Notes: generated by a model from the letters alone, not told the origin. 37,230 nt of DNA from a virus (IMGVR_UViG_3300025597_000002), one strand, 5' to 3'. Positions 11,188 through 37,230 are shown, counted from the first letter of the stretch. Made by a program: numbers and translations.

Positions 11188-11541
11188 GTGAGTTCGGACC
11201 GCACGGTGGTCAGACCGGGACGGGCCCGGATCTGTTCCCGCACGTCCTCGGGCAGGCTAATGGAAGAGGCTCCCTGGGCCACCATCAGCGGCGGTCGGCC
11301 ACTGACACCGCAGAAACTATCGCGAATGTTGCGCAAATTCGGCGTCAGGTCACGAAAAGGGAGAACCAATAACATGTACGTGCGCGAAGATTTGGTGGAC
11401 AAATGGGAGCGGTATTGTCCCCAATATGGGGGACAAAGTGGGCCGGTTGATAACACGGAAACAAAAAAATCTCCCTACCTCCCGAATCAAACCTCCACAC
11501 CTCCACAAGTTGACGTAAGTGTAAATGTGAAGAAGATTTAG
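11188..11541 (+). CDS. Orphan winged-helix-like ORF resembling the C-terminal end of DUF3631 (P4-type primase C-terminal region). The true start may be the ATG at 11260.
   Basis: The motif string EEAPWATISGGRPLTPQKLSRMLRKFGVRSRKGR..YVREDLVDKWERY matches my recollection of DUF3631 C-termini. It is preceded by in-frame TGA TAA at 11173-11178. It competes with the antisense ORF 10842..11456. Confidence 0.35.
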   Translation: MSSDRTVVRPGRARICSRTSSGRLMEEAPWATISGGRPLTPQKLSRMLRKFGVRSRKGRTNNMYVREDLVDKWERYCPQYGGQSGPVDNTETKKSPYLPNQTSTPPQVDVSVNVKKI

Positions 11542-11648
11542 GGCGTGGAGGTTTGTTTCGGTGATAGGTCCTGGTTGTATGAAACCTCCACGCCGCAAGT
11601 GTATATAGAATAAGCACTTGCGACAAGGTGTGGAGGCGTGGAGGTTTG
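11488..11648. repeat. Nested inverted repeats built from six copies of AAACCTCCAC / GTGGAGGTTT, plus an internal 8-bp-stem palindrome
   Basis: Forward double motif at 11488-11509. Reverse single copy at 11543-11555. Forward single copy at 11581-11593. CGCAAGTG, 13 nt, CACTTGCG at 11594-11622. Reverse double motif at 11627-11648. Confidence 0.85.
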
Positions 11649-11680
11649 AAACCGGTATTGGAGGGAAAAAATGATTTCTC

Positions 11681-25166: not shown

Positions 25167-25415
25167 TCACAACAACCGCGGTTGCTCCGCCGCTGTGGGT
25201 TTGAGGAGTTTATCCACCTTCCGTTCCGCCGCCTGGGCCTCCCGCAAGGCCGAAATCGCCTTGGTCTGAAAATACGCCCGCTGGGCCTGACGCATCCGCG
25301 ATACGGCATCCCGCAAGGCCTCGAACTCGGTTTGCAACCGGCGCAAACGGCAGCGGTAACACTGGCCGCAACGTCCGTCATCGCAAATGGTTATCGTTTT
25401 GCTCATGGGTGACAC
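25167..25415 (-). CDS. Small Cys4/coiled-coil protein (82 aa)
   Basis: ORF track. CDDGRCGQCYRCRL followed by a helical segment. Confidence 0.4.
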   Translation of the reverse strand: MSPMSKTITICDDGRCGQCYRCRLRRLQTEFEALRDAVSRMRQAQRAYFQTKAISALREAQAAERKVDKLLKPTAAEQPRLL

Positions 25416-25581
25416 ATCCTTTGGTCTCTAATTCATTCCGTAAGACCAGAACCGAGCGTGGTGCCATAATCGCCAGTTTGACCGCCGATTTGACCCTCAC
25501 GACCTTCACCACAATCCGCCCATCCCTGGTGTCGATCAGCAGTTTCTCGCCTTCCCGCCGGCTCAAAACGAGGTTCCCCAT
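25378..25581 (-). CDS. csrA: CsrA/RsmA-family RNA-binding regulator homologue (67 aa)
   Basis: MGNLVLSRREGEKLLI...VKLAIMAPRSVLVLRNEL matches CsrA hallmarks. ATG at 25581 with AAGGAG 7 nt upstream. Confidence 0.75.
   Translation of the reverse strand: MGNLVLSRREGEKLLIDTRDGRIVVKVVRVKSAVKLAIMAPRSVLVLRNELETKGCVTHEQNDNHLR
25507..25579. repeat. Left arm of a 73-bp perfect inverted repeat (covers the G of the csrA ATG through codon 25)
   Basis: Exact reverse complement of 27113-27185, checked base by base. Confidence 0.95.
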
Positions 25582-25600
25582 GGCATACTCCTTCCGTGTT

Positions 25601-25801
25601 TCAGTCGTCAGACTCCTGCGCATCCAACTTGCCAAACAGAATCCGAAGTTCGCTTTGGGCCCGGTCGAGACGTTCTTTCGCACTCTTGACGGCCTCTTTC
25701 AGTTCGGCCAGGTTCTCTTCCGCCGCTTGCAGCTCCCGGTAGGCCTCCATCAGGTCACTCAAGGTGACCTCGTCATCCTTCACCATGATCGTTCTTGTCA
25801 T
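25601..25801 (-). CDS. Small coiled-coil protein (about 66 aa)
   Basis: Internal ATG of track ORF 25601..25906. EAYRELQAAEENLAELKEAVKSAKERLDRAQSEL. Confidence 0.35.
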   Translation of the reverse strand: MTRTIMVKDDEVTLSDLMEAYRELQAAEENLAELKEAVKSAKERLDRAQSELRILFGKLDAQESDD

Positions 25802-26693
25802 TGGACCCTCCTGTTTCACGACGTTGACGTGCCAACTCACGTTTTCGCTTGACCGCCAAATTAAAGAGCTCCGTTTTTTCCATGTGATCGAGCCGGTCAT
25901 CTTCACGAATGGCCTGGATCACGCCATCGATCCCGTCCGGGGCCGCCGTCTCGATCGACCTCAGATATTGACTGGCCAGGTCGCCCAATTCGTGGTTGGC
26001 CGCCTCAGTCGGGCTTCCGGCCGCAGCTTGCGGGTTGTCGGCTGCGGCCGATTCGCCCGACCTGGAAAACTGGTGCGGCAGATACTTCGCTAGCCGCTTG
26101 ATGACCGTTTTTCTGGCCATTTCCCCCCAATCCGTCTCCCAGGGGCTGTTCTCGTTGCCGAAGGAACCACCCCGTTCGGCGTTGGCCTCGATTTCGGCCT
26201 TCGTCATCCACTCCACCAGCGGCCGGTCGAAATCCTTAAACCAGGCGATGGCGTAGGCCCCGATCGGTTCGCCCGGCTCCGCCGCAATGGCCGGACGATG
26301 CTCCACAATCCGCCCTTCGGGATCGCCGAACCGCAATTCGAACTGATCACCCTTGCGAACCGTTCTGGCCTCGATGTGGGAAATCCGGGGGTTACTGAGC
26401 ATGATACGGAGGATCGCCCGATAATCCGGGACAAAGACGGCCCGGTATCCCCCGCCTTTGGTTTTCCGTGGGATCAATGTCCCCTCGTTGGAAAGCCCGC
26501 TCGGGTCCAGGCCCATGGCCACCGCCTCGGCCACGGCTTCGAGGATCGAGGGCACGGAGCAATTGGCCAGATCTCCGTCACGATTGATGACGTAGATGAC
26601 GTTCTCAACGATCTCCTCGACGGGCGTGCCCGCCTGGGCAATCGCCCGCAGACGCGGCAGAAGTTCGCGCAGTCGGATGGCAATCGGCGTCAT
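25773..26693 (-). CDS. recT: RecT-family single-strand annealing recombinase (306 aa)
   Basis: CSVPSILEAVAEAVAMGLDPS, PIGAYAIAWFKD, SPWETDWGEMARKTVIKRLAKYLP. ATGA overlap with the upstream gene. Confidence 0.75.
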   Translation of the reverse strand: MTPIAIRLRELLPRLRAIAQAGTPVEEIVENVIYVINRDGDLANCSVPSILEAVAEAVAMGLDPSGLSNEGTLIPRKTKGGGYRAVFVPDYRAILRIMLSNPRISHIEARTVRKGDQFELRFGDPEGRIVEHRPAIAAEPGEPIGAYAIAWFKDFDRPLVEWMTKAEIEANAERGGSFGNENSPWETDWGEMARKTVIKRLAKYLPHQFSRSGESAAADNPQAAAGSPTEAANHELGDLASQYLRSIETAAPDGIDGVIQAIREDDRLDHMEKTELFNLAVKRKRELARQRRETGGSNDKNDHGEG

Positions 26694-27088
26694 TGGCTTG
26701 TCTCCGGTTGCTCCTGATTCCTAAGTTCACGGCCATAGGCCACACACAAGGCTTTTAAGGCCTCGTCCAGTTTTGCGTGGGGCACCGGTCCGTATTTGGC
26801 GTAAAACTCCGCCACCGTTCGGCCCCGATCAACGATGGCGCACAACTCAGTGAACGCCTGGCTCAGCCATTGGCAATGACGCTCCAGGACCTCCTTATAG
26901 GCCCGATGGGCCTCCAAAAGCGTTTCCACGGGCCGACGTTTCCCAACGAACGGCGTGAGGGCCAAAAAGCTGATCTCCCGAATGAGTTCGGCCTGTAAAC
27001 TCTCCAGAGGGCCGACATCGAGGACCTCCTGAAAAAGTTCGGCTTCATCGCGTTTTGACTTATTCCTGTTCCGTGTTGGCATCGCCAA
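26690..27088 (-). CDS. Hypothetical protein (132 aa)
   Basis: ORF track. Coherent helical sequence. Confidence 0.45.
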   Translation of the reverse strand: MAMPTRNRNKSKRDEAELFQEVLDVGPLESLQAELIREISFLALTPFVGKRRPVETLLEAHRAYKEVLERHCQWLSQAFTELCAIVDRGRTVAEFYAKYGPVPHAKLDEALKALCVAYGRELRNQEQPETSQ

Positions 27089-27473
27089 GTTCCTTAGTTT
27101 TTATGTCTCCTCGGGGAACCTCGTTTTGAGCCGGCGGGAAGGCGAGAAACTGCTGATCGACACCAGGGATGGGCGGATTGTGGTGGGCGTCCAAGTCCCA
27201 AGCGTCACCCCAGCAATCACACTCATACACCCAGATCGTGAGTTCGCCGTTCTCTTCTCGTTCGGTCGTGTATCCAAGCTCATGCCCACATGTGGCGCAG
27301 CGGCAAACGTCACCGCAGATTTTTTGGTTTGCGTTCATTTCATCGTTCATCCGGTTGTAGCAATGCAGGCATGGTTTAACGCGGATCTCAATCGCTGGGT
27401 ATTTATCCACCACTTCCGTAACGGTGAGTTTGCATGAGCATCCGTCGCAAACGCAAATTGGCTGACAAATCAT
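27060..27473 (-). CDS. Cysteine-rich, zinc-ribbon-like small protein (137 aa)
   Basis: Last 137 codons of the implausible 559-aa track ORF. ATG at 27473 with GGAG upstream. MICQPICVCDGCSCKL...CLHCYN...CGDVCRCATCGHEL...YECDCWGDAWD. Confidence 0.5.
   Translation of the reverse strand: MICQPICVCDGCSCKLTVTEVVDKYPAIEIRVKPCLHCYNRMNDEMNANQKICGDVCRCATCGHELGYTTEREENGELTIWVYECDCWGDAWDLDAHHNPPIPGVDQQFLAFPPAQNEVPRGDIKTKELGDANTEQE
27113..27185. repeat. Right arm of the 73-bp perfect inverted repeat (inside the 3' end of the Cys-rich gene)
   Basis: Exact reverse complement of 25507-25579. Confidence 0.95.
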
Positions 27474-27670: not shown

Positions 27671-28540
27671 TTAACGAAATGAAACGTTGATTTTCGGGAC
27701 CACCGGCCGAATGGCTCCCAGCATTCTGGGGTCCACGTAATGCTTGATGGTAGTTTCCGGAGAAGCATGACCCGCCACTCTGGTGGCCATATTCAGATCG
27801 TTCACAGCGGTCCACGTAATACACGTTCGCCGCATCTTCTGAAAAAGCTGCCCGTGTAGTTGCTTCGGGGCTGGAATCCCTGCCCGATCGACAATTCGAC
27901 GCAAGGCCCGATCGGGCCATTTTGGGTTGTACGGGTGTTCCCATACTTTTTCGCGGGGTGGCTCTTTGATTTCCTTTAACAGCACGGCCAAATCCCCGGG
28001 AATCGCGAAAGTCTGCTCGCGTTTGTTTTTGTTGGTTAACGCCTTGAGAAACCGGCCATTGAGGTCGACCTGAAACCAGTACACGTTCAAAAGGCCACTT
28101 AGCCTCAAGCCGGTGTAGTAGCTCGCCAGGAGAATAGACTGCCACCAGAGCCGGGCCGGAACGGAACCCACGTGACCATCCAGTTTCCCCACGTACTCGA
28201 AGAGTTTTTTGGTCTCTTCTAAGGTCCAGGCATCGGGGGTCCGCTTTTCCACTTGGATTCTTGGAAAGCGTGGCAAACGAGAAATTAGACCGCGTTGAAA
28301 CGCCTCGTTGACAATCGCTTTCAAGACGACGAGATAGTGTTTCAGAGAATGCGATGACCGGCAGTGATTTCCCACGGTGGAAAGGTACCGCCCGATATGT
28401 TCTTCGCAGATATCGCCAACAAAGATGTCTCCGTTGGCCTCGATGAATCTCTTGATCACCCGCTTGATATCGTCGTGGTGTTTTTGCGACTGATGAGGCC
28501 GCAAGAGAGCGTACTGCTCCGCGAGATGAGACATCTTCAT
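27671..28540 (-). CDS. int: Tyrosine recombinase / phage integrase (289 aa)
   Basis: Catalytic pattern: GLRLSGLL (Arg), HGQLFQKMRRT (His-x-x-Arg), GHASPETTIKHYV (His...Tyr). Confidence 0.85.
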   Translation of the reverse strand: MKMSHLAEQYALLRPHQSQKHHDDIKRVIKRFIEANGDIFVGDICEEHIGRYLSTVGNHCRSSHSLKHYLVVLKAIVNEAFQRGLISRLPRFPRIQVEKRTPDAWTLEETKKLFEYVGKLDGHVGSVPARLWWQSILLASYYTGLRLSGLLNVYWFQVDLNGRFLKALTNKNKREQTFAIPGDLAVLLKEIKEPPREKVWEHPYNPKWPDRALRRIVDRAGIPAPKQLHGQLFQKMRRTCITWTAVNDLNMATRVAGHASPETTIKHYVDPRMLGAIRPVVPKINVSFR

Positions 28541-28786
28541 GGCGCCTTCTCCATGGGTGCACGGCGGCCTTTTGGGCTGCCTTGCCCCCTGAAGGCCACG
28601 GAGTCATGACAAGTCTTTCCCTATCGAAAGTATGCCATATTCCGCGCAGCGAGAGCGCACAATTTCCGCGCATAACACCATTCCAAATTGTGCCAATGCG
28701 GGCTACACGCCCAGTGTTTTGGTTGTGAGCACCCGCCAAGCCGCCTCAGAGGAGGCTCAGAAGATGCCCGGTGATTAATCCAACCG

Positions 28787-28817
28787 CCATTGTACAGATA
28801 TCAGACCAATTGTCAAT
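28787..28817. repeat. Imperfect direct repeat copy A (CCATTGTACAGATATCAGACCAATTGTCAAT)
   Basis: About 24 of 30 positions match copy B at 29082. Lies between xis and int. Confidence 0.6.
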
Positions 28818-28845
28818 AACATACAAGTATGAAATTATCTGCGTA

Positions 28846-29113: not shown

Positions 29114-29481
29114 TCAAATGGCAGGCGTGGATAGGCTCACCGGGCACCGGAAGCCCCCCAGTCCTCGCGGAGCTGGGCACCTGCCATATACTTGGTGTTT
29201 TTCCGGAATATGCTAGAATCTTTCCTGAGGACCTAACATGACATCTCGATTCAGGAGACGAACCAATGGTGAAAGCCTTCCTGAAATCTCGCCTCTGCGA
29301 CCCACCAGTGGATTGCACGCCGGCAAATATCAATTCCGATTTGTTAAAGCAGCCCATTCCTGGCGACAAAGTCTATCATGCCGCACTCGAGGCTTATAAA
29401 AGCCAAAATGTATCTTTTGTGTACGCATGTCCCCTGGATTCTAGATAAAACGAGAGAATGCTTAACATCTGTTGCTTAAAC

Positions 29482-29512
29482 TGGGGTACTAGGATTCGAA
29501 CCTAGCGCCACA
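29482..29512 (-). other. tRNA 3'-half-like fragment (perfect T-arm plus acceptor strand); candidate attP core
   Basis: In minus sense: GCGCTAGG TTCGAAT CCTAG TACCCCA. No matching 5' acceptor strand, D-arm or canonical anticodon arm upstream. Confidence 0.5.
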
Positions 29513-29671
29513 CGAAATCTCCATGAGTAGTTCGTGTGCACAAAAGGAGCATTAACGAATCAGTGCACCTGAGTTGGAGTCAGCACACACCCTATAGCCC
29601 GGTAGGGGGGGTGGGAGAGCGTGTTCGCACCCGCGACACACAGATCCACAGTCTGGTTCCCCTCAGGGAGA

Positions 29672-36906: not shown

Positions 36907-37230
36907 TCACCCTGTGCAATAAACGTAGCGAATTTCGCCCTGGTATTGAGGATTGGACGGTGTTGGACAATTACAACTACTTGGACATCCTTCGTAGGTG
37001 CAGTCGTAATAGAGCATCCAGCCGTATTCGTCGTCCCATTGCCACGCGCATTGGCATTGATTGCACGGCGATGGTGACGTGCTTGTGCTCGAGCTCGTGG
37101 TCGGTTGCTGGCTCGTCGTCGTACTTGTGCTTGTCGAACTGGTCGGCTGTTGCGTGGTCGTGCTGCTGGTTGTCGAGCTCGTGGTTGAGCTGCTGGTCGG
37201 TTGGCTGGTGGTCGTCGTACTTGTGCTTGT
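36907..37230 (-). CDS. C-terminal segment of the same giant ORF (last Cys/Trp module and stop)
   Basis: nt 1 equals nt 37119 through the terminal overlap, and both are codon first bases, so the frame is continuous. It reads ...TSTSPSPCNQCQCAWQWDDEYGWMLYYDCTYEGCPSSCNCPTPSNPQYQGEIRYVYCTG, then TGA at 36909-36907. Confidence 0.8.
   Translation of the reverse strand, partial: TSTSTTTTSQPTSSSTTSSTTSSTTTQQPTSSTSTSTTTSQQPTTSSSTSTSPSPCNQCQCAWQWDDEYGWMLYYDCTYEGCPSSCNCPTPSNPQYQGEIRYVYCTG
37119..37230. repeat. Terminal duplication identical to nt 1-112 (circular-assembly overlap, inside the tandem repeat)
   Basis: Base-by-base identity of 37119-37230 with 1-112. Confidence 0.95.

Follow-up and report, generated by a model that had tools for sequence, protein, structure and literature searches.

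The window analysed here, a 37,230-nt stretch of DNA from a virus (IMGVR_UViG_3300025597_000002; coordinates are counted from its first letter), encodes a CsrA-like regulator and carries, 1.5 kb upstream of csrA in the same minus-strand gene string, an exact inverted copy of the 5′ end of that gene, lodged in the 3′ end of a cysteine-rich (Cys-rich) gene. This second copy, termed the right arm, is probably a recent, clone-specific templated inverted insertion, made by template switch or by break-repair copying. Comparison of the alleles shows the insertion to be derived, confined to one near-clonal lineage and responsible for a net gain of 73 nt; it would be neutral or mildly deleterious, and tolerated in that it struck a dispensable gene only at its very 3′ end. 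An initial annotation of the window had read the two arms as a potential antisense device or inversion switch, an interpretation that is partly supported overall; the insertion adds one more case to a known kind of mutation, its structural potential being incidental, and the right arm looks like an ordinary fresh scar of replication or repair, not a conserved switch.

The window and its relatives provide a clean natural case in which both the pre- and post-insertion alleles of a templated inverted insertion of 1.5-kb range are available, in wild phage populations ∼0.5% apart. In one step the phage acquired a long and perfect inverted repeat, gave one of its proteins a new tail and furnished a regulator gene with a potential antisense partner; the caution is that perfect identity and suggestive placement are no proof of function when the carriers are one clone.

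The two arms and their uniqueness

A repeat search of the window places the arms at 25507–25579 and 27113–27185, reverse complements of one another at 73 of 73 positions and separated by 1533 nt. The left arm, the donor, runs on the minus strand from the G of the csrA ATG (base 25579) through codon 25; the right arm, the derived, clone-specific copy on the minus strand, is the reverse complement of csrA nucleotides 3–75 and sits at the 3′ end of the Cys-rich open reading frame (ORF), where it is read in a different frame and where TCG (27111–27113) occupies the position equivalent to the csrA ATG. Open reading frames and Pfam matches assign recT and two small genes, all co-oriented, to the spacer. 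The initial annotation had described all of this geometry accurately, save for the csrA Shine–Dalgarno sequence, which it placed 7 nt outside the arm; the minus-strand AAGGAG at 25588–25593 lies 8 nt from the left arm.

The only other long exact repeats in the whole window are the terminal overlap and a 96-nt tandem repeat. Runner-up inverted matches reach at most 28 nt at ∼80% identity, in addition to one large imperfect hairpin (11487–11649; 68-nt arms, 74% complementary, 27-nt loop), and the chance expectation of an exact 73-nt inverted match in 37 kb of this base composition is ∼1e-33 by our own arithmetic. A diversity-generating retroelement-like mutagenic repeat was considered and rejected, the arms being inverted and identical, with no A-specific differences. 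A shorter direct match, 15 of 16 nt, joins 25509–25524 in csrA to 26303–26318 in recT and also yields a 16-nt inverted match to the right arm; both segments encode G-R-I-V, and the match is probably a coding coincidence.

Alleles before and after the insertion

Relatives of the window were collected for comparison, as contigs labelled L001–L028 and proteins labelled P0001, P0006 and P0009. The right arm is present in L001, L002, L010–L013, L016 and L017, and the identical stretch occurs in a metagenome-assembled genome (MAG) labelled Candidatus Hydrogenedentes (GCA_035369885.1). Arm-bearing contigs lie 0–3 single-nucleotide polymorphisms (SNPs) apart in 12–20 kb, with slightly different SNP haplotypes.

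The pre-insertion allele is found in L009 (Logan contig, ERR14790949), which carries an integrase and the Cys-rich gene, the latter with 1 SNP in 313 nt relative to the window (99.7% identity). The junction is GGACG-CC-[73 nt]-GAGGAGACATAA in the window and GGACG-AC-GAGGAGACATAA in L009, the allele strings being GGACGACGAGGAG without the arm and GGACGCC+arm with it. The difference is a clean net gain of 73 nt, the arm itself, plus one changed base, A to C, at the left junction; microhomology is limited to an ambiguity of just 1–2 nt (C/CC) beside this non-templated change. The extra sequence is present in one lineage and cleanly absent at the same site in L009, with identical flanks, and the insert has an exact reverse complement 1533 nt away, in a csrA that is intact and identical in arm-less relatives.

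Two further Logan contigs, L014 and L015, match the window at 99.5% without a gap, L014 across 9.9 kb and L015 across 3.7 kb, and read uninterrupted through the csrA arm, the second copy being absent from both; the sample that gave L015 is the one that gave L009. The arm would thus be single-copy in the L014/L015 strain, since a k=31 assembly graph would break at a repeated 73-mer. As a single sense copy the 73 nt occur at 100% identity in L003, L004, L014 and L015, and blast aligns 63 of the 73 nt, at 96.8%, in L023–L028. In some ten further relatives, drawn from other runs (L003, L004, L018–L022 and L023–L028), inverted matches to the 5′ end of csrA reach no more than 14 nt; of these, L003, L004 and L023–L028 show the order recT-p66-csrA, and L018–L022 the order int-p155-recT, with only L018, the longest, reaching csrA.

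Taken together, the right arm is missing in L009, L014, L015, L003, L004, L018 and L023–L028. The initial annotation had looked to related phages for conservation of the right arm; relatives carry the same genes without it, which by that annotation's own reasoning refutes the regulatory or switch reading. The Cys-rich gene is absent from the L003/L004/L018–L028 lineages, forming a ∼440-nt accessory insert between int and a 130-aa gene, and on these comparisons is itself a recent accessory insert. In more distant IMG/VR relatives recognised by RecT (L005–L008) the Cys-rich gene is missing, as is csrA in most of them, which makes them uninformative on the arm. No close DNA relatives of the window were found among INPHARED phages, and exact scans with a 32-mer of the arm and a 25-mer of the Cys-rich gene gave zero matches in IMG/VR, JGI metagenome contigs and GTDB representative genomes.

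The compared contigs are also mosaic. Between 25290 and 26697, recT is 94% identical to that of L003/L004 and csrA with 330 nt downstream is 100% identical; between 27188 and 27910, the integrase shares 61% aa identity with that of L009 and the adjoining Cys-rich gene 99.7% nt identity. The recT ATG of L003 stands exactly at the position of the 130-aa gene's ATG in other lineages.

Effect on the Cys-rich protein

The Cys-rich gene (27060–27473, minus strand) encodes 137 aa in the arm-bearing clone, of which residues 1–96 (27186–27473) are ancestral. Its L009 counterpart (P0001) has 99 aa and ends in WDLDDEET, with a TAA stop ∼20 nt before the next gene start; the end of the L009 gene reads GAC GAC GAG GAG ACA TAA, and the window carries the same bases shifted by +1. 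The arm was inserted four codons before the old stop, shifting the frame such that the original TAA (27101–27103, minus strand) is now out of frame and read through, and a protein of 99 aa becomes one of 137 aa. In place of the last four residues (DEET) stands a 41-residue tail drawn from the arm and the frameshifted sequence downstream, and the extended ORF runs 23 nt into the start of the 130-aa gene. csrA, its Shine–Dalgarno sequence and the other genes are unaltered by the insertion.

Recency and probable mechanism of the insertion

Perfect identity of the arms would reflect recency. Arm-bearing genomes amount to approximately one clone, and the divergence of 0.3–0.5% from the arm-less strain predicts ∼0.3 mismatches in 73 nt, so that 73 of 73 identical positions are unremarkable; since the youth of the copy suffices, neither gene conversion nor selection is needed. 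The initial annotation had held that perfect identity over 73 bp demands an explanation, a demand that recency answers with carriers only 0–3 SNPs apart. Its alternative of a gene-conversion scar came closest to the evidence in proposing a recent scar, and fails in so far as gene conversion between older repeats is meant, a templated insertion taking its place.

The history of the locus would begin with an ancestral int-(p130)-recT-p66-csrA order (p130 and p66 being the 130-aa and a 66-aa gene), continue with gain of the Cys-rich gene (the L009 state), and end with the 73-nt csrA fragment entering that gene in inverted orientation close to its 3′ end, 1.5 kb upstream of csrA (the window state). 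In the last step, a growing DNA 3′ end would have left its template, copied the strand of opposite polarity at csrA (nucleotides 3–75) and returned with only 1–2 nt of microhomology, either by template switch during replication or by templated filler synthesis in break repair. We infer template switching or templated repair synthesis from the exact, nearby reverse-complement copy, the 1–2 nt of junction ambiguity and the one non-templated change.

Templated inverted insertions at breaks have been reported (PMC11724301, PMC8421209), and the class of template-switch and templated inverted insertions, whether quasipalindrome, four-point, microhomology-mediated break-induced replication-type or break-associated, shares with the present case an insertion specific to the descendant (PMC7954356, PMC11724301, PMC8421209). 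The class further resembles it in the exact reverse complement nearby on the same molecule, which yields a perfect inverted repeat, and in minimal microhomology accompanied by an irregular junction. Unlike its typical members, the donor here is 1.5 kb away and not tens of bases, there was no prior near-palindrome at the target, and the setting is a temperate phage with its own RecT.

Several points weigh against a templated insertion of this kind, or against its being inconsequential. Classical prokaryotic template switches operate over tens of bases, not 1.5 kb, and with junction microhomology that appears minimal the mechanism is not provable from sequence. Knowledge of the ancestral allele comes from one short contig, L009, whose sequence runs only 7 nt past the stop codon, and the orphan Cys-rich family offers no outgroup to fix polarity: a word-indexed search together with an exhaustive phmmer search returned only the 99-aa allele and one weak match, a Cys-repeat protein of 1374 aa. 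The variant is not strongly deleterious, because several datasets yielded it as a complete circular assembly, and a selective benefit of the insertion is conceivable.

Potential for RNA duplex formation

A 73-bp RNA duplex between the arms has a predicted energy of −166 kcal/mol, and the minimum free energy fold of the 2.1-kb mRNA contains every one of the 73 pairs, in a purely thermodynamic calculation. By this modelling it is physically possible for a read-through mRNA to form a 73-bp duplex that covers the csrA start from +3 and that would be an RNase III-type substrate. The read-through duplex of the initial annotation thus stands as regards full pairing in the fold and passage of transcription, a consensus scan having found no minus-strand terminator-like site between the promoter-like site upstream of int and csrA; its regulatory meaning does not, the arm being absent in L009, L014 and L015.

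A selected cis-antisense device would go further: whenever transcription began upstream of the Cys-rich gene, the arm would pair with the csrA start 1.5 kb further down the mRNA, block initiation and make an RNase III substrate, CsrA being made only from spacer-initiated transcripts by a logic like that of lambda sib. The perfection of the predicted duplex, the co-orientation of the genes, the promoter-like site upstream of int and the uninterrupted path to csrA are all consistent with such a device, and long double-stranded RNA is an RNase III substrate in bacteria (PMC7373196, PMC6212723). It is improbable nonetheless. Outside the clone no relative has the partner arm, not even the nearest ones with the same genes, leaving neither conservation nor covariation; a simple consensus scan found no promoter-like site inside the spacer from which csrA could be transcribed free of the arm; both arms fall within translated sequence, where ribosomes would oppose pairing; and full pairing in the minimum free energy fold is a trivial outcome for any perfect repeat.

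In lambda, retroregulation of int by RNase III depends on sib, a local and conserved hairpin 3′ of int. The hypothetical arrangement here would be similar in that the duplex forms only in transcripts from a particular promoter, dooming a specific cistron, and in its location in the integrase-proximal early region of a temperate phage; it differs in being a 73-bp long-range pairing across 1.5 kb, not conserved and predicted only. Quite improbable, too, is a newborn regulatory element that helped the clone to spread, whether through an antisense arm that makes CsrA promoter-dependent or through RecT flipping csrA off in a crude switch. Modulation of CsrA by the arm, if real, would amount to the de novo birth of a cis-regulatory RNA element, and nothing here supports it.

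Inversion between the arms

Invertible segments such as Mu G/Gin, Salmonella Hin, E. coli fimS and the shufflons use short, dedicated recombinase sites that are conserved and give two functional states. The window resembles them in having inverted repeats that bracket a segment with a start signal and a recombinase gene nearby; it differs in that freshly copied coding sequence forms the repeat, and in that the nearby recombinase is an ordinary phage integrase with a xis-like partner.

As an ON/OFF switch, the 1.5-kb recT segment would be flipped by homologous recombination between the arms (through RecA or the phage RecT) or by site-specific recombination through the integrase, removing the Shine–Dalgarno sequence and ATG of csrA. 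The geometry of the arms is as the initial annotation had it, with recT between them, and phage Rad52-like recombinases, RecT included, have inverted a lambda promoter segment with 800-bp inverted repeats at ∼20-fold the RecA rate (PMC3945230). This engineered lambda PL cassette, acted upon by Red-beta, RecT or Erf, is comparable in that identical inverted repeats flank an expression-determining phage segment and a phage single-strand annealing recombinase is at hand; unlike the cassette, whose 800-bp repeats are artificial and whose inversions were selected, the window has 73-bp arms and no inverted isoform was seen, and its inverted state looks non-functional.

Such a switch is very improbable on the evidence assembled here. 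A single orientation, and no inverted order, was found among the contigs carrying recT, csrA or p130, a survey of assembled contigs that does not extend to minority isoforms in reads. The arms are not conserved among relatives, they are plain csrA coding sequence and not a recombinase core site, and at 73 bp they make a poor substrate compared with 800 bp. Inversion would also set recT, along with two further genes, antisense to the operon and leave csrA with TCG for ATG, its start fused to the ORF antisense to the Cys-rich gene, a fused ORF without similarity to CsrA beyond the arm (Pfam match to residues 4–18 only). Coexisting orientations among the contigs, conserved repeats and sensible products in both orientations are all lacking, and the inversion switch of the initial annotation loses its support with them, given relatives without the right arm, no inverted contig and an inverted state that is not sensible. 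It is physically possible that the arms serve as a substrate for rare inversion by homologous recombination.

Assembly artefact and older duplication

Both arms, with the same spacing and orientation, are found in a SPAdes contig (ERZ724020 NODE_832), a MEGAHIT k141 contig (ERZ27257446), the NCBI MAG contig and the JGI window; a second JGI contig was counted as a carrier by its identical arm-encoded ORF, which gives four carriers besides the window. At k=141, from how de Bruijn assemblers work, read-derived k-mers would span each 73-nt arm with both flanks. That one arm is an artefact of assembly or amplification and not part of the real genome could be suspected from the metagenomic origin of the sequence and from exact repeats, which can mark chimeric joins; with the same structure recovered by several assemblers and in NCBI and JGI data of differing SNP haplotypes, and with both ORFs remaining open, it is hardly credible, and the assembly chimera that the initial annotation had listed is excluded. 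P0006 (103 aa, JGI), tried as a diverged arm-bearing relative, proved to be the same ORF with its TTG start merely translated as L.

Scarcely more can be said for a remnant of an older, larger inverted csrA duplication with its core kept identical by gene conversion, for which a faint likeness by eye between the plus-strand ORF after the arm and CsrA residues 26–45 might be cited, but whose Pfam CsrA match ends inside the arm (residues 4–18, E 0.12), the arm flanks in L009 being contiguous Cys-rich coding sequence from which the arm is cleanly missing. A second, diverged csrA on the plus strand was rejected on the same two observations.

Genes and further features of the window

The intact csrA (25378–25581, minus strand) encodes 67 aa and belongs to the CsrA/RsmA family above the curated Pfam threshold (PF02599, E 8.7e-12; 45.3 bits, where the cut-off is 27, over profile positions 2–49 of 53), with a further match to PHROG 9500, ‘CsrA-like regulator’ (E 6e-9). 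Phage CsrA-like regulators are already a PHROG family. As an accessory gene, phage csrA varies in presence and position, being absent in L006 and L007, following a p79 homologue in L005, and lying directly after recT, without p66, in L018.

The remaining genes of the string are likewise on the minus strand. The 66-aa coiled-coil gene p66 (25601–25801), the last spacer gene before csrA, adjoins csrA also in L003, L014 and L023–L028; recT (25773–26693) encodes a single-strand annealing recombinase (Pfam PF03837, E 4.6e-37); and the 130-aa ORF p130 (26690–27082), the first spacer gene and one with no function assigned, has a ribosome-binding site, AAGGAA, ∼20 nt downstream of the right arm in the mRNA and an 88% identical homologue, P0009, whose lineage lacks the Cys-rich gene. 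The string opens with a tyrosine integrase gene, int (27671–28540; Pfam PF00589, E 1.8e-8), upstream of which a strong promoter-like site, TTGACA-16-TACAAT (28789–28816, minus strand), matches the consensus at 11 of 12 positions; a consensus match only, it could drive a transcript that takes in both arms. Pfam and PHROGs searches returned nothing for the Cys-rich and 130-aa proteins, and Rfam (at gathering thresholds) and tRNA scans of the window gave no matches.

Annotation of this region in the public MAG appears wrong in three places: an antisense ORF of 103 aa (27126–27437, plus strand), whose TTG start and first 20 residues fall in the inserted arm, is called in place of the Cys-rich gene; csrA (25378–25581) is omitted; and the 66-aa coiled-coil protein (25601–25801) is named ‘TolC family protein’.

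The window as a whole is a complete circular temperate-phage-like element, its ends overlapping at 112 of 112 positions at offset 37,118, and its other products include a terminase, a replication initiator, a DnaC/IstB-like loader, the integrase and a xis-like helix-turn-helix protein. A perfect 96-nt (32-codon) tandem repeat occupies two copies at 1–192, with a diverged partial copy just before it (37075–37118). The lengths of two ENA contigs, 37099 (SPAdes) and 37163 (MEGAHIT k141), are each consistent with a circle of 37,022 bp, one repeat copy short of the window; judged from contig sizes only, the difference is either a variable number of tandem repeats or an assembly collapse.

Beside the xis-like gene, 468 nt at 29118–29583 are 97.6% identical to IMG/VR UViG_3300034759_000283 (L006, 2611–3077), an element whose RecT and integrase share only 57% and 32% aa identity, respectively, with those of the window. 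The stretch holds a 60-aa ORF (29266–29448, plus strand) with no Rfam, Pfam or PHROG match, and may be a module exchanged recently, or else a conserved region, regulatory or att-proximal. The NCBI MAG contig DAOOVF010000032.1 begins exactly at window position 28745, within the int–xis intergenic region (28541–28845) and adjoining divergent promoter-like sites at 28789–28838; this start may mark attP, or a branch in the assembly graph between integrated and circular forms.

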